The position numbers and the translations under genes are program-made. The notes under the pieces are model-generated. The model did no database searches. It saw only the letters and a list, made by a program, of their open reading frames with translations, and was not told the DNA's origin. A stretch of 64,000 nucleotides of DNA from an uncultured Coxiellaceae bacterium (lineage in GTDB: Bacteria; Pseudomonadota; Gammaproteobacteria; Coxiellales; Coxiellaceae): NCBI GenBank assembly GCA_947084935.1, contig CAMTUH010000010.1:4538-68537 (forward strand), read 5' to 3'. Positions 3,069 to 34,730 of the stretch are shown here, piece by piece (the stretch's first letter is position 1; every line of letters begins with the position of its first letter).

Positions 3069-3716
3069 TCAGTCGACAAGATTAACAATGGTTTGAACGA
3101 CAACACCAATGATTCTGTCTTTTTCTCCCAGTTGTTGAGATATTTCAGCTTGACCTGGGGTGACAAAAAACCGAATATCATCATCGAAAACAATTTCTTT
3201 TAAATTAACAAATTTTTGACCCTTTAGTGCAACGATAACAAAGTCTCCATTTCCGGGTTCTACTTCGGGATCAACAATAATAATTGATCCCTTTTGAAAT
3301 TGGGGCTCCATGCTGGCTGTATTTATATTTAATGCAAAAGCATGTTTACTTGTAACGTGCTCGGTGAGCACCCGCTTAGCTTCTCTTTTTTTGCTAAAAA
3401 ATTCTTCTGGGTTATAAGCTTCATGCCAATTCAGTGCTGGAACAGAGTTGTCGGTTGCGGTAGCACGGTATTTTCCCAGGTCATCTTCTCTGAGCGGTAT
3501 CTCACCAATTAACTGCCCTACGGGGATAGAAAAAAAATTTGCAATAATACTTAAAGAATCAAGAGTTGGGTTGGGATTCTTTTCTTTTATTAATCTGTTG
3601 ATGACCGATTTGGAAATACCCGTCTTGCGAGAAAGCTCGCGCTCGCTTAATGCCGCTTTGCGCATCAGTAAAGAAAGTATGTTGCCAATTTTGTTTCCCA
3701 ATCCAGTGCCCCCCAA
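3069..3716 (-). CDS. LexA/CI-like repressor (XRE-type HTH plus S24 peptidase domain)
   Basis: N-terminal HTH LSERELSRKTGISKSVINRLIKE. C-terminal S24 signature with the catalytic-Ser context TASMEPQF and a downstream GDFVIVALKGQK segment. Start codon uncertain (TTG at 3716 or 3701). Confidence 0.75.
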   Translation of the reverse strand: MGGTGLGNKIGNILSLLMRKAALSERELSRKTGISKSVINRLIKEKNPNPTLDSLSIIANFFSIPVGQLIGEIPLREDDLGKYRATATDNSVPALNWHEAYNPEEFFSKKREAKRVLTEHVTSKHAFALNINTASMEPQFQKGSIIIVDPEVEPGNGDFVIVALKGQKFVNLKEIVFDDDIRFFVTPGQAEISQQLGEKDRIIGVVVQTIVNLVD

Positions 3717-5458: not shown

Positions 5459-5872
5459 ATGGGTTTTGCATTGATAAAAAGAAAAGCGCATTCTTTATTT
5501 GAAGAAGCTCGTTTCATTGGTCATATCAATAATAACGAAGAGTACGAAAAAGCACTTACTTTAATGGATGAGCTCATCGAAGACTATGACTATAATCGCG
5601 TGTTAATTGAGATTCTTTCTGCCAGTATCGAGCGTTGGGAAAATGAGTCTAAAGAATTTAAAGACTTTAATGCGCGCATCGAATCGGTAGATTCAGGACG
5701 AGCCCTGTTAGAAATAATCATGGAGCAATATGAATTGGGCGTGGCTGACTTTCCTGAAGTGGGTTCTAAATCGTTGGTTTCAAAAATTTTAAATAATAAA
5801 CGTCGATTGACCTTAGGTCATATCCAAGCCCTGAGTAAACGATTTGGGATCGACCCCGGATTGTTTCTTTGA
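5459..5872 (+). CDS. higA: HigA-family HTH antitoxin / transcriptional regulator
   Basis: Collinear by eye with E. coli HigA: NEEYEKALTLMDELI, IERWE..SKEFKDFNA, IMEQYELGVADFPEVGSKSLVSKILNNKRRLTLGHIQALSKRFGIDPGLF. Good SD (GGAG). Confidence 0.8.
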   Translation: MGFALIKRKAHSLFEEARFIGHINNNEEYEKALTLMDELIEDYDYNRVLIEILSASIERWENESKEFKDFNARIESVDSGRALLEIIMEQYELGVADFPEVGSKSLVSKILNNKRRLTLGHIQALSKRFGIDPGLFL

Positions 5873-8293
5873 TTTTTCTGGAAGGTGGCCGTTGATGAGG
5901 TTTTTATTATTTGAGGTATCGGTCTTCGACAAGGTTAACCACGTTTTTAGAATAGAATCGGGGCTCAGAGACATGCTGTTGATGCCTTGTTCCAGGAGCC
6001 ATTGAGCAAAATCGATGTGATCCGATGGCCCCTGTCCGCAAATACCCACGTATTTATTCAGTCGCTTGCATGTTTGAATGGTTTGACTCAACAATGCTTT
6101 AACGGCGCTGTTCCGCTCATCGAATAAATGTGCAATTAATTCGGAATCGCGGTCGAGGCCCAGCGCTAATTGAGTCAGATCATTTGAACCAATGGAGAAC
6201 CCATCAAAATATTCCAGAAATTCTTCCGCTAAAATAACGTTGGAAGGGATTTCGCACATCATATAGAATTTCAGGCCATTTCCGCGCTTGAGCCCATGTT
6301 TTTCAGTCAGGGTGAGCAATTGCGTTGCCTCATTGACGGTACGAACAAACGGAAACATAATGTGTGTATTAATCAGTCCTTTTTCTTCACGAACGCGTCT
6401 CACCGCTTCACACTCGAGCGTGAAGCAGTCCCGAAAATTTCCCGAAGTATAACGCGAAGCTCCGCGATAACCGAGCATGGGATTTTCTTCGTGTGCTTCG
6501 TAAATAGCGCCGCCAATTAAATTCGCGTACTCATTCGATTTAAAATCGGAAAATCGTACAATGATGGGCTTGGGATAAAATGCAGCGGCAATGGTCGCAA
6601 TGCCTTCGGCCAGTTTTTCAATGTAAAATTCAATCGGATTTTTGTAGGCCGAAATTATTTTAGCGATTTTATTTTTTAGCGGCGGGGGCAATTTTTTATA
6701 ATCCAAAAGTGCGCGGGGGTGTATGCCGATCATGTTGTTAATAATAAATTCCAATCGCGCGAGTCCAACACCACCGTTGGGAATAAATTGGTAGACAAAT
6801 GCTTGTTCGGGGTTGGCGAGATTCATGCACAATTCGACGGGTAACGCGGGCAGTTGATCAATGGATGTTTTATCGATGCGGTATTTGGCATTACCTTTAT
6901 AAACGTAACCGGTTTCGCCTTCCGCACAGGAAACCGTAATTTTTTGGCCGTCTTTAATTACTCGGGTTGCATTACTGCAACCTACGACCGCAGGAATTCC
7001 CATTTCGCGCGCAATAATTGCCGCATGGCACGTGCGTCCACCCCGATTGGTGATGATGGCTGCGGCGCGTTTCATGATCGGCTCCCAATCGGGGTCCGTC
7101 ATGTCGGTTACTAAAATTTCGCCGGGCTTCAGTCGATCTTTTTGTTTCGGACTTTTAATTAAACGAGCAACGCCGTGCGTGATTTTTTGTCCGATGCTGC
7201 GTCCTTGGGTGAGGATGTGCCCTTTTTCTTCTAAACAATAGTGTTCGAGAACACGATGAGTTTCATTCGATTGTACGGTTTCCGGTCGTGCTTGCAGAAT
7301 ATAAATTTCATTGTCAATGCCGTCTTTCGCCCACTCGATATCCATCGGCTTTCCATAATGGGATTCGATTAACAGCGCTTGATTCGCCAGGACTAAAATG
7401 TCGTCGTCGCTGATACAAAAGCGTTGTTGATCCGCGATGGGAACGGATTGATTGACGGTAGCAGTTTTGTTTTTTTTCGATTTTTTTGCGTAGACAGTTT
7501 TTATCGATTTCGATCCCAGCTTTCGGCTGATGATGGATTTTTTTTCTTCGCGCAACGTGGGTTTGTGAACATAAAATTCATCGGGATTATTCAGACCCTG
7601 AACAATAGTTTCGCCAAGACCGTATGCGGCAGTAATAAAAATCACTTGATCAAATCCCGATTCCGTGTCGAGGGTAAACATCACGCCACTGGCGGCTAAA
7701 TCACTGCGCACCATTTTTTGTATGCCAGCGGAAATAGCCACTTGTGTGTGGTCGAATCCGTTGTGAATGCGGTATGAAATGGCACGTTCGGTAAACAGCG
7801 AAGAGAAAACTTTTTTGATTGCGGTGAGAAGGTCTTTTTCACCGCGGATATTTAAATACGTTTCTTGTTGTCCGGCGAATGAGGCCTGCGGCAAATCTTC
7901 CGCCGTGGCCGATGAGCGAACGGCAACCGACTGGGACGGTTTTAACTGAAGTTGCCGATATGCTCTTTTGATTTCTGAAACGAGTTCGTCTGGCAGCTCG
8001 GCGTTATCAATCCAGCGACGAATGTCCACGCTGGCTTTTTTCAGCTGGGTCATATTATTGATGTCTAACTGGAATAATGCTTTAGAGATTTTTTTATCTA
8101 GGTTATTTTTTTCTAGGAAGTCATAATAAGCGAAGGCGGTGGTAGCGAATCCCCCGGGAACCTTGATCCCCAGAGGGGAGAGCCTGTTGATCATCTCTCC
8201 GAGGGAGGCGTTTTTACCGCCGACGTCGGGGAGGTGCTCTAGGGTAACCTCGCGAAGGTCCAGTATATAAGTCATGTTTTGATCCATTTTCAT
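5813..8293 (-). CDS. ppsA: phosphoenolpyruvate synthase
   Basis: 826 aa. N-terminal GGKNASLGEM, the phosphohistidine swivel segment TNRGGRTCHAAIIAREMGIPAVVG, and the C-terminal PEP-utilising domain GFSIGSNDLTQL. C-terminus is about 35 aa longer than the usual end after ..TWL.L.. Confidence 0.95.
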   Translation of the reverse strand: MKMDQNMTYILDLREVTLEHLPDVGGKNASLGEMINRLSPLGIKVPGGFATTAFAYYDFLEKNNLDKKISKALFQLDINNMTQLKKASVDIRRWIDNAELPDELVSEIKRAYRQLQLKPSQSVAVRSSATAEDLPQASFAGQQETYLNIRGEKDLLTAIKKVFSSLFTERAISYRIHNGFDHTQVAISAGIQKMVRSDLAASGVMFTLDTESGFDQVIFITAAYGLGETIVQGLNNPDEFYVHKPTLREEKKSIISRKLGSKSIKTVYAKKSKKNKTATVNQSVPIADQQRFCISDDDILVLANQALLIESHYGKPMDIEWAKDGIDNEIYILQARPETVQSNETHRVLEHYCLEEKGHILTQGRSIGQKITHGVARLIKSPKQKDRLKPGEILVTDMTDPDWEPIMKRAAAIITNRGGRTCHAAIIAREMGIPAVVGCSNATRVIKDGQKITVSCAEGETGYVYKGNAKYRIDKTSIDQLPALPVELCMNLANPEQAFVYQFIPNGGVGLARLEFIINNMIGIHPRALLDYKKLPPPLKNKIAKIISAYKNPIEFYIEKLAEGIATIAAAFYPKPIIVRFSDFKSNEYANLIGGAIYEAHEENPMLGYRGASRYTSGNFRDCFTLECEAVRRVREEKGLINTHIMFPFVRTVNEATQLLTLTEKHGLKRGNGLKFYMMCEIPSNVILAEEFLEYFDGFSIGSNDLTQLALGLDRDSELIAHLFDERNSAVKALLSQTIQTCKRLNKYVGICGQGPSDHIDFAQWLLEQGINSMSLSPDSILKTWLTLSKTDTSNNKNLINGHLPEKSKKQSGVDPKSFTQGLDMT

Positions 8294-10504: not shown

Positions 10505-11344
10505 ATGATGAGTCAAAATTTAACACCCAAAAACCATATTGTTGTATTCAACAGCAACAAAATTAGGCGTGTATTTCATGGGAACATGTGGTGGTTTGTT
10601 ATTACCGATGTCATTGCAGCATTAACCGATTCTACTCAACCCACCGGATATCTTAAGGATATGCGCCGCCGAGACCCAGAGCTAAACAAAGGATGGGGGC
10701 AAATTGCCACCCCCCTTTTGGTAGAAACTGCTGGTGGCCCTCAGAAGCTTAATTGCGCAAATACAGAAGGGATTTTTCGCATTATTCAATCTATTCCGTC
10801 TCCAAAGGCAGAGCCTTTTAAGCGCTGGTTAGCCAAAATTGGTTACGAACGAGTGCAAGAAATAGAGGACCCAGAGTTGGCTTCCCAGCGTGCTCGCGAT
10901 CTTTATAAAGCTAAAGGTTACACCAAGAGTTGGATTGAAAAGAGAATGCGCGGAATTCAGATTCGCGAAGAATTAACAAATGAATGGAAACACCGTGCTG
11001 TCGGTGGTGAGAATGAATACGCCATTTTAACCGCAGAAATCTCTAAAGCTACCTTTGGTCTCACTCCTGCCGAGTATAAAAAACATAAGGGACTCAAGCG
11101 TGAAAATTTACGAGATCATATGACGGATTTAGAGTTGATTTTTTCTATGTTGGGGGAGGCTTCTACGACCGAAATTACTCGTGAAAACGAAGCCATAGGA
11201 TTCAAAGAAAATCGTACAGCCGCTCGTGCAGGCGGTGAGGTAGCCGGTAACGCTCGCAAAGATTTAGAATCCAAAACCCGTAAAAAAGTGGTGGGCAAGA
11301 AAAATTATTTGGCGAAGAAAAATAAATTAATTTCGAGAAATTAA
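10505..11344 (+). CDS. Bro-N domain protein (DinD / phage antirepressor-like)
   Basis: N-terminal Bro-N pattern (VVFNSNKIRRVFHGNMWWFVITDVIAALT..). KAEPFKRWLAKIGYERVQEIEDPE resembles DinD-type proteins. Strong SD (AAGGAG). Confidence 0.65.
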   Translation: MMSQNLTPKNHIVVFNSNKIRRVFHGNMWWFVITDVIAALTDSTQPTGYLKDMRRRDPELNKGWGQIATPLLVETAGGPQKLNCANTEGIFRIIQSIPSPKAEPFKRWLAKIGYERVQEIEDPELASQRARDLYKAKGYTKSWIEKRMRGIQIREELTNEWKHRAVGGENEYAILTAEISKATFGLTPAEYKKHKGLKRENLRDHMTDLELIFSMLGEASTTEITRENEAIGFKENRTAARAGGEVAGNARKDLESKTRKKVVGKKNYLAKKNKLISRN

Positions 11345-24485: not shown

Positions 24486-24950
24486 ATGGGCTTTAAAAAT
24501 GTCATGAAGAAGGGCTTGTTTTCGGGGCTGAATCCCATGCGGTGGATCGGTTTCGAGCAAATCGCCGGCAATGCCAAAACGATTAAAAATCTCGCCGACG
24601 GCATTGTCAAAGCTTCCGGTAAAGAAGAATCCCCCACGCATCCCCATTCGTTTGAAGAAGCCATGCAACGTTATGGGTTAAGCGAAGACGATATCAAACA
24701 GCGTATGCGCACGGCCGTGCAAATCAGCGTCATCTGCCTGCTGCTCAGCATTCCAATGATGGGTTACGCGATTTATCTCTTTGTGAAAAACTTTCCCTTG
24801 TCCGCGTTTGTTTGCATTATGTTGACGCTGTTGTTGTGGGCCTACGCGTTTCGCGAACATTTTAATTATTTCCAAATGAAGCAGCGCCGTTTGGGGTGCA
24901 CGTTTAAAGAATGGTTTGTTTACACCGTTAAGGGTAAGGGGTCACGATGA
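24486..24950 (+). CDS. icmV: Dot/Icm inner-membrane protein IcmV
   Basis: 154 aa with two TM helices. Divergent from icmW and 4-nt overlap with dotA, as in known loci. Confidence 0.78.
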   Translation: MGFKNVMKKGLFSGLNPMRWIGFEQIAGNAKTIKNLADGIVKASGKEESPTHPHSFEEAMQRYGLSEDDIKQRMRTAVQISVICLLLSIPMMGYAIYLFVKNFPLSAFVCIMLTLLLWAYAFREHFNYFQMKQRRLGCTFKEWFVYTVKGKGSR

Positions 24951-27331
24951 AAAAAATAGCCGCGGCATTTTCGACACTGTTTTTATGGATTATTTCAAAC
25001 GCAGCCTGGGCGACGGATTTCACCGATAACACCGCGATGAATAATCATCACGATTTATCGATGGCTTATCTCGGTCAGGTGTTTGGTAGCGTCGGCAATG
25101 TGTTGCAGGGCACCAGCGGCCAGATGCTCGGGCATATATTTTATAAATTTAATGAAGGCATCATCATCGTTGCGGGTTTGTGGTTGGCCTACACCGTTTT
25201 CACGATTGTTTTGCGTGCGGCGCAAGAAGGCTCGTTTATGGGAGCCAATAAAAGTGTGGCCTTGACGTTTTTAAGAATTGCTCTGGGTTTTAGTTTATTA
25301 ATTCCCAGTGCATCGACCGGTTATTCGCTGTTGCAAGATATTGTGATGAAAGTCGTGGTGCAAGGTGTTGGGCTTGCGGATCAAACGTGGGAATACGGTT
25401 TAAAATACCTCGATAATGGTGGCAGCGTGTGGCGTCGTCCCGAAGAACAAGGCGGCGGTAGCGATATTATCAATCAAACAACGGCGCAGAATATTTTGGG
25501 GGAAAGCAATAAGGTGGGTCCCGGTCAGCAAATTTTTGCTGATGAAGTGTGCATGTATTCCAGCAACGATAATCAACCTTCGGCGCGTACTTCCGGTGGT
25601 AATATCGGACCTGCCGTGCAAGGAACTCCAGGAGTTCAATACGATATCGTGACGAACGATGCCAATCATTTATTTCAATTTCCGGGCGTGGGTAATGTCG
25701 AACCGTTGGGGCCCGGTGCGAATAATTGCGGACAAGTCTCCTGGGACATTCAGAATGCGTGTACGGGGAGTGGTTCCAATGATACGAAATGTGCGATGGC
25801 CAAACAAGCGTTGAGTGAATTAGTGACGAGTTTACAGCCTGCTGCGAAAAAATATTACTGTTCACAGCACGCCAATGCCGCTTCGTGTACGGGCACGGGT
25901 ACGGAAAATACAGCGAGCGATAACGAAGAAACATTTTTTAATGGGCTAGTTAATTACGTGAATTTGATCGTGCCGTTGGTACAAAGCAACGTGGGTGGTG
26001 CCGAATCCACAAAACAATTTATCAACGAGGCAGAAAACGAAGGCTGGTTGAGCGCGGGTCGCTATTACTGGGATATGGCGCAAATTCAATCGCAATACGA
26101 TTCGATTTCAGACATCACCAATTATTCGCCGGCCAATGCAGTAGCGCCCACTTTGTCGGGTCAACCGTTGTCGGATGCCAATAGTGCGCTTTCAGAAGCA
26201 CAAAGGTACATGCCAACGGTGTTCAGTACCATTCAAAAGTGGAGTCAATCGGAAAACGCCGGTGATACCGGAGGCGGATTTCAACCACAAGGGGGTGGAG
26301 CTGGCTTTGGATTCATGAGCAGCATTTTAGGTGTTGTGGTGGGCGATATTACTGCCCTCATCATAACATTCACTACGGGAAATGGGGGATTGATGGGCCC
26401 GGACCCGATCATGTTCTTACACCACGTAGGAATGGCGTGCATTGGCTTGGCTGGGGATATTTGGCTTGGGTCATTAGGGTTGCTTGCGGGTGTTTTTTTG
26501 GCGGCGGGTATTTGTAATGCGGAATATAATGCGGGGCCGGCTATGCAATCCGTGGTAGAGTGGGTCAAGCCGTTATTAATGGTACTCGCGACGGCATTCT
26601 GGGGCGTGGGATTTGTGTTGGGTTTCTACGTGCCGATGTATCCTTATATTATTTACACGTTTGGTATTATTGGTTGGATTATCGCAGTGATTGAAGCGAT
26701 GGTTGCGGCGCCGTTGGTGTGTTTCGGACTCACCCATCCCGAAGGACACGATTTTCTTGGTGAGGCTAAGCAAGCATTGATGTTATTGCTGGGTGTGTTT
26801 TTACGTCCGGTGCTAATGGTCATCGGGTTGATTGCAGCGATGATTCTGTCTTACGTTTCATTACGGATTGTCGTGTATACGTTTTCGGGGTTCGCGAGTG
26901 ATCTGTTTTATCAAGCATCATTGGGGATGGCGCCTGCTTCCGGTCCAGCGGATGGAAGTATTTTAGGAGCCGCTGGTACGTTGATGGGGCATTCCATGGT
27001 GGGTTCCGGAAGTATCACTGGATTTGTTCTTTGCATTTTCGTTTTTCCATTGACGTTAATTGTTTTTACCGCGCTGGTTTATACGGTGACGACGCAGTGT
27101 TTCAGCCTGATTTTTGCGTTACCCGATAATATCCTTCGTTGGATCGGTGGGCCGATGCATCAAAGCTCGGCTGCACAAATGGCGCAACAAATTCAAGGTA
27201 CTTTGGGCGGCGCAACCAGCAGCGTGGGCAAAGGTATTCAAGAAAGCAGCGCGGCTCAGGACAAACGCGACGAACTCGCCAAGCAATCTCAACTGGTGCG
27301 GAGTCGTGGAGGCCGTGGGCGCACAAATTAA
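24947..27331 (+). CDS. dotA: Dot/Icm polytopic membrane protein DotA
   Basis: 794 aa. Signal/TM at the N-terminus, a large periplasmic domain, then a cluster of C-terminal TM helices. Position after icmV. Confidence 0.82.
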   Translation: MKKIAAAFSTLFLWIISNAAWATDFTDNTAMNNHHDLSMAYLGQVFGSVGNVLQGTSGQMLGHIFYKFNEGIIIVAGLWLAYTVFTIVLRAAQEGSFMGANKSVALTFLRIALGFSLLIPSASTGYSLLQDIVMKVVVQGVGLADQTWEYGLKYLDNGGSVWRRPEEQGGGSDIINQTTAQNILGESNKVGPGQQIFADEVCMYSSNDNQPSARTSGGNIGPAVQGTPGVQYDIVTNDANHLFQFPGVGNVEPLGPGANNCGQVSWDIQNACTGSGSNDTKCAMAKQALSELVTSLQPAAKKYYCSQHANAASCTGTGTENTASDNEETFFNGLVNYVNLIVPLVQSNVGGAESTKQFINEAENEGWLSAGRYYWDMAQIQSQYDSISDITNYSPANAVAPTLSGQPLSDANSALSEAQRYMPTVFSTIQKWSQSENAGDTGGGFQPQGGGAGFGFMSSILGVVVGDITALIITFTTGNGGLMGPDPIMFLHHVGMACIGLAGDIWLGSLGLLAGVFLAAGICNAEYNAGPAMQSVVEWVKPLLMVLATAFWGVGFVLGFYVPMYPYIIYTFGIIGWIIAVIEAMVAAPLVCFGLTHPEGHDFLGEAKQALMLLLGVFLRPVLMVIGLIAAMILSYVSLRIVVYTFSGFASDLFYQASLGMAPASGPADGSILGAAGTLMGHSMVGSGSITGFVLCIFVFPLTLIVFTALVYTVTTQCFSLIFALPDNILRWIGGPMHQSSAAQMAQQIQGTLGGATSSVGKGIQESSAAQDKRDELAKQSQLVRSRGGRGRTN

Positions 27332-28659
27332 TTCGTAACCAACAACGCCAACGGCAAGGCAAGGAATAGGATACTTAAAAATATCAAGGCGGGGAAAAAG
27401 AAAACGTTGAGCAACGCCACGCCACCGACCAAATAGATCACCAACATCAACGCGGAAAATTGGCTGATTTTAACGATAAATCGATCGAAAGGACGATATT
27501 TAAGGGCACCCCCTTTCGGAATCATCATTTGCGTCAACCACGCGAATGTGTGTCGAGGAGCGATAATCGTTAATAAGCCGAACAATCCTAACACGGAAAC
27601 GATCATCGCGATCCAATGCGGTATTTCGTGGATTGTGTGCGACGACACCCAGAAACACAATAAATAAAAAACCAAGGGCAGTGCACAGGTAGCCAGAATA
27701 ATGGCGCGTAGGGAGTAACCTCGCGATAAACGCGCAATGAATAGACCCGCTACCGGCATCCAACTCAGCCACCACAAAATAGCAAATAATTGCCAATTCA
27801 ACAGCGCTCCCGGTTTCAACAGCGCGAAAAGAAAATGGGGCGTGTTAAACTTCATAGAAAAACCGGTCCCAAAAAACAGCGCCAAAACAATCACGATAAA
27901 TGCTAAAAACACGAACAATCCAAACAGAGCGGTAATCGGTGACAAATCGTATCGGGTTATTAAGTGGTGACTTTGCCGTTTTATGAATTTAGAACTCATG
28001 AAAAAAAGCACCAAGCATGAGAAAATCAAACCAGCAAAATGGGTTTCTTTTAGCGCATTCATATTCGTCGGCGCCAGCGTGGATGCAATCAACAGCGTGA
28101 TCAGAGCAATCGTCGAGCTCAGCGCAAACATCATGGCGGCGCGCGTCGTCGTGTTCACGATTAACGAAAACGGTTTATCCGGTACGGCATTCGGAAAAAA
28201 AGTATTCGCCATCAACGTATTGTGGTCGCGACGAAACCCCAAATACCCGAGGGCACTGGCAATCAGCGCCACTCCAACCCACGGAAAAAGCCCCCTCGTT
28301 AATAAAGTATGTGCGATCGTGTTGCTGAATAAAGGCGGTTTTACGTCAGTAAAAACAGGGAGCGTGTTCCCCGAAAGCACGCAAATTCCCCAGAAAACCG
28401 CGAATAAACTGAGTTCTAGAATAAAAATTTGTGACAGCCATTGTACGGGATTTAGAACCGTCATTCCGTCAGGGATCTTCAATTTTTTATTACCCAATGG
28501 TGAGAAAATCACAACGGCTGCTCCGATGACCCACAGCCAATACCCGTGATAGCTCCAAACGACTTGTGTCATGAAATTTAAAAGCAGAACCAGGCTGATG
28601 ATTATCGAAACGATAACCATAAAAAATAATAATCTAAGTTGTGGCTTTAATAATTTCAT
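27328..28659 (-). CDS. polytopic inner-membrane protein, 443 aa, unknown function
   Basis: About 12 hydrophobic helices. Convergent 4-nt overlap with the dotA stop. Weak BCCT-like flavour (GLFPWVGVALIASALGYLGFRR), not secure. Confidence 0.55.
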   Translation of the reverse strand: MKLLKPQLRLLFFMVIVSIIISLVLLLNFMTQVVWSYHGYWLWVIGAAVVIFSPLGNKKLKIPDGMTVLNPVQWLSQIFILELSLFAVFWGICVLSGNTLPVFTDVKPPLFSNTIAHTLLTRGLFPWVGVALIASALGYLGFRRDHNTLMANTFFPNAVPDKPFSLIVNTTTRAAMMFALSSTIALITLLIASTLAPTNMNALKETHFAGLIFSCLVLFFMSSKFIKRQSHHLITRYDLSPITALFGLFVFLAFIVIVLALFFGTGFSMKFNTPHFLFALLKPGALLNWQLFAILWWLSWMPVAGLFIARLSRGYSLRAIILATCALPLVFYLLCFWVSSHTIHEIPHWIAMIVSVLGLFGLLTIIAPRHTFAWLTQMMIPKGGALKYRPFDRFIVKISQFSALMLVIYLVGGVALLNVFFFPALIFLSILFLALPLALLVTN

Positions 28660-30770: not shown

Positions 30771-31274
30771 TTAACTCGAGTAATAACGCAACTCAATCGT
30801 TCGAGTGGCCGGATAAAGCGTGATATTCGCTTTATTTTCCACTTGGAACGTAGCGTTACGCAAAATATCCGCAAGCGGAACATTGTTCGCATTAATGGCC
30901 ACGATTACCGGAATGGGCGGTTTGTCGCCCAGCACGCGTAAACGGTAATGGCTGGCTTGCGCGATTTTTTTTAGTAACGGCTCAATGGGTCCCGTCCAAT
31001 CCAGTGAAGTTTGTTGCGCCATGCCGATGAGATCGGGATTCAACGGCTCGGCTAATTTCGCTTTCGGATGAGTCGCCAATTGGATGGCGGCGATTTGTTG
31101 TAACGAATGGCCGACGTCCACGGAAGCTTCGGACAGCTGGGCCTGAGCGTTAACGTCGGTTGCTTGGACCGGAGCGCTGTCGGTGGTGATGTACGAATAG
31201 GTTAACTTTTTATGGACGGTACAGCCGGCGAGGATACAGAACAGGGGTATAAGCCACAAGTGTTTTATTTTCAT
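30771..31274 (-). CDS. dotD: Dot/Icm outer-membrane lipoprotein DotD
   Basis: Lipobox ILAGC, 167 aa, first gene of the dotD-dotC-dotB operon. Confidence 0.85.
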   Translation of the reverse strand: MKIKHLWLIPLFCILAGCTVHKKLTYSYITTDSAPVQATDVNAQAQLSEASVDVGHSLQQIAAIQLATHPKAKLAEPLNPDLIGMAQQTSLDWTGPIEPLLKKIAQASHYRLRVLGDKPPIPVIVAINANNVPLADILRNATFQVENKANITLYPATRTIELRYYSS

Positions 31275-31355
31275 AGTCTTGCGATCGCTTGGTATGATAA
31301 CGGTGTTGCAACAAGGTCCTACCCTTTAGTGACCGATCCGTGGCTTATGCGGATC

Positions 31356-31388
31356 ATTCTACGACAGTAACCTTAAGAGAATATTAAG
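31356..31388 (-). promoter_or_regulatory. PmrA-box promoter of dotD-dotC-dotB
   Basis: Minus strand reads CTTAATATT-CT-CTTAAGG-N9-TAGAAT. The -10 ends 81 nt upstream of the dotD ATG. Confidence 0.65.
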
Positions 31389-31436
31389 AAATATCCGTTT
31401 GCTTACCGCGGCACATTTACTTACACTTGCCTCTTT

Positions 31437-32438
31437 TTGATACAAACCGAAGTGAGAAGGCCTGTGGATGAGAAAGAAGTGGGTAATTATCTGCACGGAG
31501 TCGCTAGAGAAATCGCCAGGGAGAGGTCTTCATGGAATGGTCCGAAAGAACTAGGGTTAAAAAATAGAATAAGACAGGAGTTGCTTAATAAAGGGATTAC
31601 ATACCCGGATTTTAAGCGCATTAGTGAAATTCTGGGCGAGCGCTGCGGTAAAGTGGCGGCAAAAGCCGTGAAACGCCTGCGTAGTATATTGAGTTCTTTA
31701 GCCGAGGAGTTGAAGGCAAAAACTCAGAAACGGCCATTTGGCGACGAGGTATGGGAACCTGCTGAAGGTGGACCACCAGCAAAAAGACGAGCGTATGGTC
31801 CGCTGGCCATTACCACAGAGCTGTCAAACACCTTTTCGGAACATTCAGAGCATCTTAACGAGAAAGATGCTCAATTGGTGGATCAACTTTTGGGTGCGAT
31901 GGAGGAACTCAAAGATGGCACAAAGGTAATGGAGCTTCTTCCCTTCTTGGGTTCAGAAAATTCAGAAATAGGCTTGACCCCTGAGCAAGCCGGTACTTTA
32001 TTACAGAATTTAGATGATATGGGAAAAGACTTCGCGGATCCTGATAATATATTTCGCAATTGGCTCAGGACTTTTCTTCCGAAAGAAAACCCTATCTCTT
32101 CTCACACGGATTTACCACAACCTACTTTTGATATGCAGGGGGAGGTATTACCAACATTTGAATTTGCTTCGATGGAAGAGGTCGTCGCTTTTGCAAATGC
32201 ACTCTCAACTCCCGATAAAATAATCACTCGGGTGGACGAAAAACCCACCCGTGCTGCAACCACAGCTGCCACAACTACAGTTAACGTTGAAGTCAGAGCC
32301 CCGTCACCGGCGGGTTCGCTTTATGTTGGGGCCGGCAGCGTTTTTTCGTCTGGAAGTCGTTCTACTGTCAGTATTAGTTCGTGCGAAGAAAAAGGCCCAG
32401 AAACTCAAAAAGAAGGGTCTCGTAGTCCAAAACGTTAG
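31437..32438 (+). CDS. hypothetical protein, about 333 aa; candidate Dot/Icm substrate
   Basis: Long ORF with no TM segment or signal peptide. Acidic, low-complexity C-terminal third ending in a Ser/Glu-rich tail (..SSGSRSTVSISSCEEKGPETQKEGSRSPKR). Start codon uncertain (TTG at 31437 or internal GTGs). Confidence 0.5.
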   Translation: MIQTEVRRPVDEKEVGNYLHGVAREIARERSSWNGPKELGLKNRIRQELLNKGITYPDFKRISEILGERCGKVAAKAVKRLRSILSSLAEELKAKTQKRPFGDEVWEPAEGGPPAKRRAYGPLAITTELSNTFSEHSEHLNEKDAQLVDQLLGAMEELKDGTKVMELLPFLGSENSEIGLTPEQAGTLLQNLDDMGKDFADPDNIFRNWLRTFLPKENPISSHTDLPQPTFDMQGEVLPTFEFASMEEVVAFANALSTPDKIITRVDEKPTRAATTAATTTVNVEVRAPSPAGSLYVGAGSVFSSGSRSTVSISSCEEKGPETQKEGSRSPKR

Positions 32439-32472
32439 TCATACATCAACTCATCCAAAGATACCGTGTCTG
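32436..32472. repeat. 37-bp duplicate of the icmS 3' end (direct repeat of 33868..33904)
   Basis: TAGTCATACATCAACTCATCCAAAGA[T/C]ACCG[T/C]GTCT. The minus strand of this copy would encode ..TVSLDELMYD* versus the genuine icmS ..DAVSLDELMYD*. Confidence 0.8.
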
Positions 32473-32535
32473 GGCTATAGGCGGTTCAGCATTCCCGGCG
32501 AACCGCCCCCAGAGCCTATCTGGGTCAGCATTTAT

Positions 32536-32616
32536 AATAACGATTGGACGCACTTGCAATAACGATTGGACGCTACTAGAATAACGATTAGACGAGAACC
32601 TAATCACGATTGGACG
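32536..32616 (+). repeat. four direct repeats with an exact 22-bp period (AATAACGATTGGACG core)
   Basis: Cores start at 32536, 32558, 32580 and 32602 (variants AATAACGATTAGACG and AATCACGATTGGACG). The last ends 1 nt before the ATG at 32617. Confidence 0.8.
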
Positions 32617-33858
32617 ATGATGGCTGACACCCATTTTAAGCGCTATTCTGCTCGCAAGGTGCAAGAAGCCTTACAGGATACCCCGGTCGTATTCATTATG
32701 GGCCCTAGGCAAAGTGGCAAAACCACCTTAGTAAAGTCATTAATCACGAATCGCTGGGAATACATAACCTTGGATGATCAGGCTCAGTTGGCTATTGCGG
32801 CTGCTGATCCGGTGGGTTTTATAAAAAACTTGCCCGAAAAACCCATAGCCATTGATGAAATCCAGCGGTTGCCCCAAATGCTGCTGAGCATTAAACAAGT
32901 GGTTGATGAAAATCGCATGCCCGGACGATTTTTATTAACGGGATCTGCCAATGCGCTTGTGTTTCCCCAAGTAGCTGACTCCTTAGCGGGTAGGGTAGAG
33001 GCAATACATTTGAATACGCTTTCTGAATGTGAAATTCGAGGTGTGTCGCCCTCTTTTCTATCCATGCTACTGGCTTGCAAGACCCCTTCAGCAAGTGAAA
33101 TTAGGATTAGAGATTATTTGATTAAACGTCTCGTGACAGGCTGTTTCCCCGAGCCCTTACAAAGGAAAACCGAGCGCCGAATTAAAGCGTGGTACAGACA
33201 ATATATCAATTCTTTAATCCAAAAAGACATTAAAGAAATTGAGCAAATTGATCACCCTGAAAAGATGTTAAAATTACTTAAACTCACTGCCTTTTATTCA
33301 AGTAAGCTGGTTAATTTTTCAGAATTAGGAGATAAAGTAGGTTTAGATCGATTAACCACGAAAAAATACATTAATCTTCTTGAACAACTATTTTTATTGA
33401 AACAATTGCCGGCTTGGCATACCAATGAATATAAAAGATTAGTAAAAACGCCTAAATTACATTTAGTGGATACCGGTTTGATTTGTGCGGCCCGAGATAT
33501 CAACAGTGAGTTTCTGTTGCGCCATCCAAAAGAATTGGGCTTTTTATTGGAATCTTTCGTTTATAACGAATTGCAAAAACAAGCGGATTGGTTGGAAGAA
33601 GATATCTTTTTTTACCATTATCGCGATAAGGACAAAAAAGAGGTTGATATCATCATAGAGAATGCACGCGGAGATTGTTTTGCCATTGAGATAAAAGCAG
33701 CGGCTACGTTAAGTTCGAGTGATTTTTCGGGTCTTACACGTTTTCGAGAGATCGCTGGGAAGCGATTTAAGTTTGGTATACTGCTGTATGATGGAGATCA
33801 GACTACCGCGTTTAGTGACGACGTGTTTGCCGTACCTTTTGGTGCGCTGTGGTCGTAA
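32617..33858 (+). CDS. AAA+ ATPase of the AAA_14/DUF4143 family
   Basis: Walker A GPRQSGKTTL, Walker B PIAIDEIQ, sensor LLTGSA. The C-terminal half fits DUF4143 (KLHLVDTGL.., restriction-endonuclease-like tail EVDIIIE). ATG at 32617 preferred over the ORF-track TTG at 32566. Confidence 0.78.
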   Translation: MMADTHFKRYSARKVQEALQDTPVVFIMGPRQSGKTTLVKSLITNRWEYITLDDQAQLAIAAADPVGFIKNLPEKPIAIDEIQRLPQMLLSIKQVVDENRMPGRFLLTGSANALVFPQVADSLAGRVEAIHLNTLSECEIRGVSPSFLSMLLACKTPSASEIRIRDYLIKRLVTGCFPEPLQRKTERRIKAWYRQYINSLIQKDIKEIEQIDHPEKMLKLLKLTAFYSSKLVNFSELGDKVGLDRLTTKKYINLLEQLFLLKQLPAWHTNEYKRLVKTPKLHLVDTGLICAARDINSEFLLRHPKELGFLLESFVYNELQKQADWLEEDIFFYHYRDKDKKEVDIIIENARGDCFAIEIKAAATLSSSDFSGLTRFREIAGKRFKFGILLYDGDQTTAFSDDVFAVPFGALWS

Positions 33859-33866
33859 ATATCGGA

Positions 33867-34205
33867 CTAGTCATACATCAACTCATCCAAAGACACCGCG
33901 TCTTTGGATGAGCTGTTTTTGACGAGTTCATTGACGACGTCGAGAATACAAAATAACCGCAAAATATCCGGCGTGAATTGATCGAATTTCACTTTCACAC
34001 CAAGCAGAGATTTTTCAACGTCTTCGTAGGTGGCGCCTAATCCGTATCCTAAACACAGTGAAGCCAATTGATCCGCCCGCTTGGTAAGGCCAGGCAATAA
34101 TCCGGTTTCAGAAAACATTTCCGTGTGCGTGATGGGGCGGCCTTTTAAGGTAAAGGTAGCGCCGAGTTCTTTGGCCATGGCCGCGAGTTTTGTCCCGATA
34201 TCCAT
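33867..34205 (-). CDS. icmS: Dot/Icm chaperone/adaptor IcmS
   Basis: FSETGLLPGLTKRADQLASLCLGYGLGATYED ... LDELMYD* is near-collinear with Legionella IcmS. Confidence 0.92.
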   Translation of the reverse strand: MDIGTKLAAMAKELGATFTLKGRPITHTEMFSETGLLPGLTKRADQLASLCLGYGLGATYEDVEKSLLGVKVKFDQFTPDILRLFCILDVVNELVKNSSSKDAVSLDELMYD

Positions 34206-34463
34206 TTAGGTATCCCACCACGGGACGGCGATTTTACGCCGTCCCGCAATTAAGTTGCGAAACCACCGAAAAAAAACTTCAATGCTAAAACCATAGCGGT
34301 TAAGAATGGTGAAAAACAGCATGGCAACGACCGCCACGATGAGTGTCCACCAACGAATATGCAGTAAAAACAATAACATTGGGAATGCCGTTTTACCGTC
34401 CCAAATGAAAAATTTGACCGGCCGTGCCGAATCGCGCCAGTGTGCTTCGTTGAGTGGTTTCAT
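34206..34463 (-). CDS. icmT: Dot/Icm inner-membrane protein IcmT
   Basis: AHWRDSARP..F..D...AFP.LLFLLHI.WWT.IVAV..MLFFT.LNRYGF.....FRW.RN..AG.RK.A.PWW matches IcmT. Confidence 0.92.
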   Translation of the reverse strand: MKPLNEAHWRDSARPVKFFIWDGKTAFPMLLFLLHIRWWTLIVAVVAMLFFTILNRYGFSIEVFFRWFRNLIAGRRKIAVPWWDT

Positions 34464-34472
34464 AGAGGTTTA

Positions 34473-34505
34473 ATTCTATGGGCAAAACCTTAAGAAAGTA
34501 TTAAA
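34473..34505 (-). promoter_or_regulatory. PmrA-box promoter of icmT-icmS
   Basis: Minus strand reads TTTAATACT-TT-CTTAAGG-N9-TAGAAT. Only 9 nt separate the -10 from the icmT ATG. Confidence 0.6.
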
Positions 34506-34520
34506 TAATGCAATATTTAT

Positions 34521-34553
34521 GTTAATGTTTCCTTAAGCTTCGTATCGTAGAAT
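34521..34553 (+). promoter_or_regulatory. PmrA-box promoter of the icmQ operon
   Basis: GTTAATGTT-TC-CTTAAGC-N9-TAGAAT. The -10 ends 30 nt before the ATG at 34584. Confidence 0.6.
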
Positions 34554-34558
34554 GGGTT

Positions 34559-34576
34559 CTTAATCAATATTTAAGG
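34559..34576 (+). promoter_or_regulatory. third PmrA-like box without a -10, overlapping the RBS of the small ORF
   Basis: CTTAATCAA-TA-TTTAAGG starts 6 nt after the icmQ-side -10. No TAnnnT follows at +9. Confidence 0.3.
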
Positions 34577-34583
34577 ACCTATT

Positions 34584-34730
34584 ATGCGCACAGAACCCGA
34601 TACAATTAAACAAGCGTGTAACGATTTTTCGCAGCTGTTATCCTCCGTTTTAGAGGACGTTACGAATCATTGCGATCAGAACAACAATTCGATCAAAATG
34701 ATCAAATCTCTCGGAGGCGGGCACCCGTGA
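34584..34730 (+). CDS. small ORF (48 aa) immediately upstream of icmQ; candidate IcmR-type (FIR) partner
   Basis: ATG with SD AAGGA at 6-nt spacing. MRTEPDTIKQACNDFSQLLSSVLEDVTNHCDQNNNSIKMIKSLGGGHP. Its TGA overlaps a GTG (GTGA) that has its own GGAGG SD 9 nt upstream. Confidence 0.3.
   Translation: MRTEPDTIKQACNDFSQLLSSVLEDVTNHCDQNNNSIKMIKSLGGGHP

Follow-up and report, generated by a model that had tools for sequence, protein, structure and literature searches.

A PDC-S01-type ATPase-nuclease module inserted at the icmS end of a Coxiellaceae Dot/Icm locus and flanked by a 36-bp duplication

The icmS-dotD junction and its duplicated icmS end

We analysed a 64,000-nucleotide (nt) stretch of DNA from an uncultured Coxiellaceae bacterium (contig CAMTUH010000010.1; hereafter, the window), in which a gene for an ATPase-nuclease, preceded by an array of four short boxes, lies inside a Dot/Icm type IVB secretion locus, between two direct copies of the 3' end of icmS (Table 1). 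A first-pass annotation of this DNA had interpreted the duplication as the attL/attR-like footprint of an element that integrates into the icmS end and supplies a replacement end.

Species genomes of GTDB were scanned with IcmS and proteins of the IcmT 90% cluster were looked up, yielding 19 related Dot/Icm loci, in none of which an ATPase gene was found near icmS. In three loci of relatives (L002, L025 and L087; loci and contigs are denoted by L numbers throughout), the genes follow the order icmT-icmS-dotD-dotC-dotB, and the icmS-dotD gap measures 118–127 nt and lacks the ATPase gene as well as ORF333, the open reading frame (ORF) that precedes the ATPase module in the window. L025 represents the closest relative found (82% identity in IcmS, 83% in DotD); identities in IcmS across the three loci are only 77–82%. 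Compared to these relatives, the window contains 2.47 kb of extra DNA (about 31393–33866), comprising ORF333, the left repeat copy and the ATPase module. The segment is thus an insertion in the Dot/Icm locus that has left icmS intact, as proposed at first pass. An empty site had also been anticipated in related genomes, and the cassette is indeed absent from L002, L025 and L087, but so is ORF333. The postulated ancestral state, with ORF333 abutting icmS, was not seen; the empty-site relatives instead contain icmS, a PmrA-like box and dotD.

In the window, dotD is preceded by TTAATATT-CT-CTTAAGG together with GTAGAAT; TTAATATT-N2-CTTAAGG resembles the PmrA-type box of Legionella and Coxiella promoters. 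The same PmrA-like box is found 3–12 nt past the icmS stop in L002, L025, L026 and L087, whatever the icmT-icmS orientation, and recurs in the window in both orientations in the icmT/icmQ intergenic region (34473–34554). In L023 and L024, a gene for a 642-residue histidine kinase/response regulator (HATPase_c/Response_reg), with its own PmrA-like box upstream, lies between icmS and dotD. Moreover, the window, L002, L025, L023 and L087 have the icmT-icmS pair in the opposite orientation to most relatives (L003, L005–L013, L015 and L026). With no gene at the icmS-dotD junction of three relatives, a different one in L023 and L024 and differences in icmT-icmS orientation, the junction is a variable, rearrangement-prone spot and a hotspot for accessory genes.

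The two repeat copies match at 34 of 36 positions and start 1432 nt apart. They are the sole 36-nt pair with up to three mismatches in the 64-kb window, and no such pair arose in 100 shuffled sequences. The repeat reported at first pass is therefore real and not due to chance, although its 37-nt version ran one base too far at the right ends. The preceding base is T in the left copy (32435) and C in the right copy (33867), so that, as had been noted, a minus-strand stop codon (TAA or TAG) is kept before both; the C-terminal DELMYD of IcmS is invariant in relatives. Two further early observations were borne out in whole or in part. No additional icmS-like sequence adjoins the left copy, and the interval between the copies holds the four boxes and the ATPase gene, but it also includes a spacer with a GC-rich hairpin that had gone unmentioned. 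The copies bracket the module closely: 63 nt separate the left copy from the boxes, and 9 nt the ATPase stop codon from the right copy.

Over 37 nt, the left copy is identical to the window's own icmS end at 34 positions, whereas it matches the icmS ends of six relatives at only 27–30. At each of the three differing positions, the left copy has T and the right copy C. The mismatches flank a core of 26 identical nucleotides, and the left copy carries the synonymous codons of this lineage. Given the 34/37 match to the resident icmS and the uniform T-versus-C differences, the left copy is best understood as a decaying copy of the local target. Elsewhere, the repeat sequence matches only icmS ends of relatives and never occurs beside another ATPase module.

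A local origin of the left copy would also be expected if it were the relic of a Dot/Icm rearrangement, either a partial icmS duplication or the icmT-icmS inversion, unrelated to the arrival of the ATPase gene; the cassette and ORF333 would then simply have accumulated in a recombination-prone spacer. The inversion shared by the window and four of the compared loci, the different spacer genes of different lineages and the PmrA-like boxes that recur around the segment as direct and inverted repeats fit such a scenario. However, the repeat copies bracket the foreign module exactly, L002, L025 and L087 share the inversion but lack an icmS-end duplicate, and nothing further resembling icmS adjoins the left copy. 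We consider this scenario distinctly unlikely.

Both repeat junctions rest on one assembly. An independent Logan contig (L079) reproduces window positions 30771–32422 at 100% identity and ends 14 nt before the left copy, and a DotD look-up led to two short Logan contigs that both end before the repeat. The exact 23-nt repeat core had no match in the metagenome contigs of the Joint Genome Institute, the 90% clusters of IcmS, DotD, ORF333 and the ATPase contained only the window's own proteins, and look-ups of the exact ATPase and IcmS sequences gave no further source. The metagenome-type contig, the occurrence of the exact proteins in NCBI and Logan records only and the end of the one independent contig retrieved just short of the left copy would all be compatible with a chimeric join. 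Yet a mis-join at a shared k-mer would leave a single copy rather than two with two differences between them; the ATPase gene and the ORFs on either side are intact, with in-frame stop codons; and NCBI and Logan records each include all four proteins (ATPase, ORF333, IcmS and DotD). An assembly artefact is thus extremely improbable.

ORF333 begins with TTG or GTG and encodes 333 residues, with a low-complexity C-terminus rich in S, T and E. Its only match among 5.8 billion proteins was itself, 1.84 billion representatives yielded only a weak repeat-protein match (E = 2e-6), and tblastn detected no counterpart in any examined locus. ORF333 may represent a lineage-specific Dot/Icm substrate candidate. 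Its G+C content at third codon positions (GC3) is 0.395, the same as that of the ATPase gene, compared to 0.50–0.58 in the flanking dot/icm genes. Among the composition signals, only the lower GC3 of the ATPase gene relative to its neighbours is informative; the low G+C content of its 3' half was rejected as proof of foreign origin, as this 5'/3' dip is a trait of the family.

Table 1. Positions of the features discussed, in the window or, where an L number is given, in the respective locus
Feature	Position	Strand	Description
dotD	30771–31274	−	Pfam DotD, E = 7e-39; left anchor of the variable spacer
dotD promoter module	31355–31394	−	PmrA-like box TTAATATTCTCTTAAGG and GTAGAAT; left limit of homology with empty-site relatives
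ORF333	31437–32438	+	Lineage-specific ORFan; its TAG stop codon opens the left repeat copy
Left repeat copy	32436–32471		Putative relic copy of the icmS 3' end; with base 32435 encodes DTVSLDELMYD* on the minus strand
Spacer	32472–32534	+	63 nt; GC hairpin GGCGGTTC-N12-GAACCGCC at 32480–32507
Box array	32535–32616	+	Four boxes (T/C/G)AATAACGATTGGACG, 22-bp period
Sigma-70-like promoter	32554–32582	+	TTGCAA-17-TAGAAT within the box array; consensus match only
ATPase-nuclease gene	32620–33858	+	412 residues; AAA+ domain, winged helix and PD-(D/E)XK domain (AAA_14 and DUF4143); PDC-S01 family
icmS	33867–34205	−	Intact, 112 residues; Pfam T4bSS_IcmS, E = 8e-32
Right repeat copy	33868–33903		Functional icmS 3' end; reads DAVSLDELMYD*
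Palindrome and TTTTT	33879–33921 (palindrome 33879–33915)	+	16-nt arms with one mismatch, 5-nt loop
PmrA-like box in relatives	L002 815–845; L025 about 1834–1850; L026 695–711; L087 about 745–765
642-residue HATPase_c/Response_reg gene	L023 7723–10000; L024 728–1606		IcmT of this relative about 90% identical
Homologous box arrays	L001 5915–5997; L016 3905–4000; L078 355–437; upstream regions of L067 and L068		TTGGACG- or ATAGACG-type, 22–23 bp period

The ATPase-nuclease gene and its box array

The gene between the repeats had been annotated as an AAA_14/DUF4143-type ATPase, and both Pfam domains indeed score well above their gathering cut-offs (AAA_14, E = 5e-25, 88 bits versus 27; DUF4143, E = 3e-45, 154 bits versus 28). 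DUF4143 has been placed in the PD-(D/E)XK superfamily (PMC3424549). In addition, the PADLOC model for PDC-S01 (PDLC04790) matches the protein over its full length (residues 1–412; E = 1e-156). PDC-S01 is a single-gene phage defence candidate, in which an ATPase is fused to a PD-(D/E)XK nuclease, and it is reported to rank as the fourth most common defence candidate in prokaryotes (PMC12988326). Translation most likely starts at the ATG at 32620 (MADTHFKRY), as in homologues. The Walker A motif (GPRQSGKTT, G28–T36), the Walker B residues (D79-E80) and the PD-(D/E)XK residues (D343 and E357-I-K359) are invariant or nearly so in 30 homologues, and the gene, which is intact, therefore looks functional.

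An AlphaFold model of the protein (mean confidence score, pLDDT, 84.6) comprises an AAA+ core, a helical/winged-helix middle part and a C-terminal α/β domain. Its best fold match in the PDB is the archaeal Walker ATPase 2qen (PAB2304), followed by RFC clamp-loader subunits, ORC/Cdc6 and STAND proteins; these matches are generic for AAA+, ORC, RFC and STAND folds, with TM-scores (a measure of fold similarity) of at most 0.42, and a sequence search found no related solved structure. The ATPase gene is not embedded among defence genes, the setting from which PDC systems had been predicted: its neighbours are dotD, an ORFan, icmS and icmT, and ORF333 has no PADLOC match.

The last of the four boxes abuts the ATPase start codon and supplies the GGA of the ribosome-binding site. 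Similar arrays precede many homologous genes. Among the homologues, 29 of 39 non-identical upstream regions contain three to six boxes of the [G/A]GACG type, which are spaced by 21–23 bp and reach the start codon. Box type corresponds to protein clade: AATAACGATTGGACG is found in the window and in L078, L016 and L056, while L001 has TAATCTTGATTGGACG, L067, whose ATPase is 46% identical, has CCACAATTGGACGC, and L070, at 38% identity, has three AAAAACGCA boxes at the same period. No boxes were found in an Agrobacterium plasmid homologue (46% identity) or in homologues at 31–38% identity, and we therefore rejected the idea that they are a family-wide feature. Instead, the array is a conserved cis element specific to this clade of ATPases. 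It is probably a self-operator, which would be bound by the winged helix of the ATPase itself. The box array of the PDC-S01 clade appears not to have been described before; the papers searched gave no account of it.

Two other roles for the boxes were considered and rejected. A reading as leader-RNA sites for CsrA, which would involve GGA, was discarded since many homologous arrays use AGACG without GGA, and it is further disfavoured by the promoter-like site falling inside the array. A scan of the region 31200–34700 against Rfam detected no known RNA family at E values up to 1. The idea that the ATPase senses box arrays in phages was likewise dropped, as a scan of viral contigs gave six two-box matches without an ATPase gene, a chance-level result.

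The array also defines one edge of the module. When the window is compared to L001, the closest locus with long flanks (79% identity), similarity extends from the box array to the stop codon, and the same limits, first box to stop codon, were found with the other closest modules. The spacer lies outside these limits. It does not resemble the corresponding upstream sequence of L001, L016 or L078, and its hairpin is unique in the window and is not common to other modules. Folded together, the spacer hairpin and the left repeat copy reach −32 kcal/mol (z −2.9).

At the other edge, the palindrome near the icmS stop is built from the icmS codons for SSSKD and SLDEL, with the right repeat copy forming part of it. 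It scores as a plus-strand intrinsic terminator, with 13 uninterrupted pairs counted, and faces the convergent ATPase gene. Its folding energy is −26.3 kcal/mol (z −5.9); for the corresponding stretch of five relatives, which encode nearly the same peptide, it ranges from −7 to −18 kcal/mol (z +0.2 to −1.7), and the strong icmS-end hairpin is thus specific to the window. Judging by these predictions, it probably terminates transcription of the ATPase gene and so spares icmS and icmT antisense read-through, and we infer that the icmS codon choice in the window may have been shaped to stop antisense ATPase transcripts. Alternatively, the palindrome could have helped to define a break that was repaired at insertion.

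Homologous modules and the origin of the duplication

Homologues at 65–80% identity are abundant in Gammaproteobacteria and metagenomes, and their modules lie in unrelated contexts. The L001 module (79% identity; 5786–7352) resides in another Coxiellaceae-like Dot/Icm locus, at a convergent acyl-carrier-protein/BCCT junction beside dotA, without a flanking repeat; its location could reflect coincidence, vertical inheritance with rearrangement or a preference for such loci. The closest module, that of L078 (80% identity, same boxes), lies 31 nt downstream of the 3' end of a convergent tRNA-Pro gene (junction at 1682–1786), and the L041 module 225 nt downstream of that of a convergent tRNA-Arg gene (junction at 1556–1856). 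The L016 module neighbours a glutamate synthase gene, and the L018 module overlaps a convergent gene. In L019–L022, which represent Marinobacter nauticus VT8 plasmid NC_008739/CP000516 (pMAQU-type) and marine metagenome contigs, the module (67% identity) stands divergently next to a Tn3-family transposase gene and upstream of a gene for a P-type cation ATPase. This arrangement is identical on many marine contigs, and we therefore regard the module there as transposon or plasmid cargo. The family is present on 185 plasmids in PLSDB. As their contexts are unrelated, the modules show the pattern of a cargo gene that is moved by other vehicles or by recombination.

A search for other copies of the cassette with different flanking duplications had been suggested at first pass. 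Modules of boxes and ATPase gene do recur, but no comparable duplication accompanies them: when 500 nt upstream were compared to 250 nt downstream in the 37 homologous modules with enough flanking sequence, the best direct repeat was 8–11 nt long, compared to 36 nt in the window. The modules have neither common terminal sequences nor inverted repeats.

These comparisons bear on the possibility that the two copies represent the attL and attR sites of an element integrating at the icmS 3' end, which would have supplied a replacement end and either lost its integrase by internal deletion or been mobilised in trans. Site-specific integration classically leaves direct repeats at the 3' end of a gene and keeps its stop codon, mismatches flanking a 26-nt identical core are what a single crossover would leave, and the L078 and L041 modules lie near tRNA 3' ends, a typical target. 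However, none of 36 window ORFs scanned against Pfam, including the one between the repeats, has an integrase or transposase domain, as had been reported for the vicinity (the remaining large ORFs are dot/icm-type by position and homology, several of them not scanned individually). Moreover, only 1.4 kb separate the repeats, and the 9 nt between the ATPase stop codon and the right copy leave no room for att arms. None of the 37 modules has a flanking repeat above chance length or icmS-like sequence, the L078 module shows no duplication of the tRNA-Pro end, and there are no shared end sequences. Finally, an imported attP site would have had to match the codon choices of this lineage (34/37, versus 27–30/37 for relatives), which would be possible only for a species-confined element. 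The replacement-end interpretation is thus disfavoured, and we regard it as unlikely.

Other vehicles left no hallmarks either. As to transposons and insertion sequences, no terminal inverted repeats and no transposase gene were found, and the 36-bp duplication is far longer than usual. An integron cassette was rejected: attC cores (RYYYAAC/GTTRRRY) are absent from 32430–32540 and 33850–33930, where GTTAGTC at 32433 fails the consensus, and no intI was found in the window ORFs scanned.

We hold, with moderate confidence, that the ATPase module is an accessory-gene insertion accompanied by duplication of the local icmS target, rather than by an element-borne replacement end. Such gain of a gene in a variable spacer is ordinary, and nothing marks the module as self-mobile. 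In the scenario that we favour, the segment 32472–33867 would be a horizontally acquired, non-autonomous single-gene module, consisting of a four-box operator/promoter array and a PDC-S01-type ATPase-nuclease gene, that landed at the icmS stop, in the icmS-dotD spacer of a Coxiellaceae-type Dot/Icm locus. On insertion, 36–37 bp of the resident icmS 3' end would have been duplicated, most likely when a staggered break was filled in or through a single Campbell-type crossover at this target; an att site brought in from elsewhere is less likely. The copy joined to the body of icmS would have been kept under selection, whereas the far copy would have become a non-functional relic with three C-to-T changes. 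As a working model, the ATPase may act as a nucleic-acid-targeting defence or anti-mobile-element protein that probably binds its own box array through the winged helix and thereby regulates itself, and the hairpin and T-run in the icmS end would probably end its transcripts.

Several points weigh against this scenario. Known transposases leave duplications much shorter than 36 bp, and no enzyme is assigned to this one; a crossover between attB and attP sites of slightly different sequence could also account for the three mismatches; and the junctions come from the single assembly mentioned above. No same-species genome was found, so that the pre-insertion state is unobserved, including whether ORF333 preceded the cassette. 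With their equal GC3, ORF333 and the ATPase gene could have arrived together, and the left copy would then lie within an insert of 2.47 kb. The presence of the L001 module in a Dot/Icm locus could signify vertical inheritance with rearrangement instead of a fresh insertion. In addition, the defence function of PDC-S01 lacks experimental validation (PMC12988326).

The insertion could, finally, be less ordinary than we suppose. The module could be a self-inserting unit, whose ATPase would recognise the 22-bp iteron-like array and whose PD-(D/E)XK nuclease would insert it at convergent gene ends or hairpins through a long staggered cut, with the window as the sole copy young enough to show the 36-bp target duplication. 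Alternatively, such modules could have been recruited repeatedly and specifically into Dot/Icm loci (the window and L001) to serve the secretion system. We rate these two ideas, taken together, as very improbable, the first because 37 other copies lack an insertion footprint.

Relation to known systems and implications

The protein resembles PDC-S01 (COG1373) in its full-length model match and in its ATPase-PD-(D/E)XK architecture (PMC12988326, PMC3424549), and the module is likewise a single-gene unit that is widely transferred, often on plasmids and transposons. The window's ATPase gene, however, lies outside any defence island, in the type IVB (Dot/Icm) secretion locus of a bacterium of intracellular type, and its clade carries the conserved box array with its 22-bp period.

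Islets that integrate into gene 3' ends through site-specific recombinases include tRNA-targeting islands and the SCC (staphylococcal cassette chromosome) elements at the rlmH 3' end. The window shares with them direct repeats of which one copy is the target gene's 3' end, with frame and stop codon kept. It differs from them in that no recombinase was found, in its small size of 1.4 kb, in that the module does not recur with repeats and in that the repeat is local rather than imported.

Iteron or operator arrays with a 22-bp period are known from the RK2 and R6K plasmid origins, and Tn7 ends contain 22-bp TnsB sites. As in these systems, three to six direct boxes, two helical turns apart, stand beside a gene for an AAA+ winged-helix protein resembling ORC and STAND proteins. 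In contrast, the window's array is one-sided, lies directly upstream of the gene's own start codon and overlaps both the ribosome-binding site and the promoter-like site. Genes for replication or transposition are absent.

The surrounding locus corresponds to the Dot/Icm loci of Coxiella and Legionella in its gene order (dotB-dotC-dotD ... icmS-icmT / icmQ-icmP-icmO) and in the PmrA-like boxes before dotD and in the icmT/icmQ intergenic region. It departs from them in 2.47 kb of extra DNA, made up of ORF333 and the ATPase module, that separates the icmS stop from the dotD promoter box and is absent in the nearest relatives.

Elsewhere in the window, dotA and a 443-residue ORF (24947–27331, plus strand, and 27328–28659, minus strand) are convergent with a 4-nt overlap; from its position, the latter is presumed to be a BCCT-type transporter gene. 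The dotA junction of relatives holds extra genes, an acyl-carrier-protein gene and the ATPase gene in L001 and a 145-residue ORF in L025. The window also encodes an F-box protein, which is a eukaryote-like candidate effector (60798–61586, minus strand), a Bro-N domain protein (10505–11344, plus strand) and an HTH/S24 LexA- or CI-like repressor (3069–3716, minus strand).

The window thus documents a candidate defence gene captured inside a Coxiella-like Dot/Icm locus without harm to icmS, at a junction that is a natural site for cargo, being empty in three relatives and occupied by a different gene in another. Its less ordinary features are the length of the duplication, the Dot/Icm location, with a second module of 79% identity at another junction in L001, and the conserved boxes. 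The 36-bp duplication itself is a curiosity, of interest only should excision or repeated insertion come to light in genomes of the same species. The main use of the locus lies in the box array. With TTGGACG-type boxes at a period of 22–23 bp, placed over the promoter and ribosome-binding site of the common yet uncharacterised PDC-S01, it offers a concrete, testable handle on recognition by the winged helix and on the regulation of this family.

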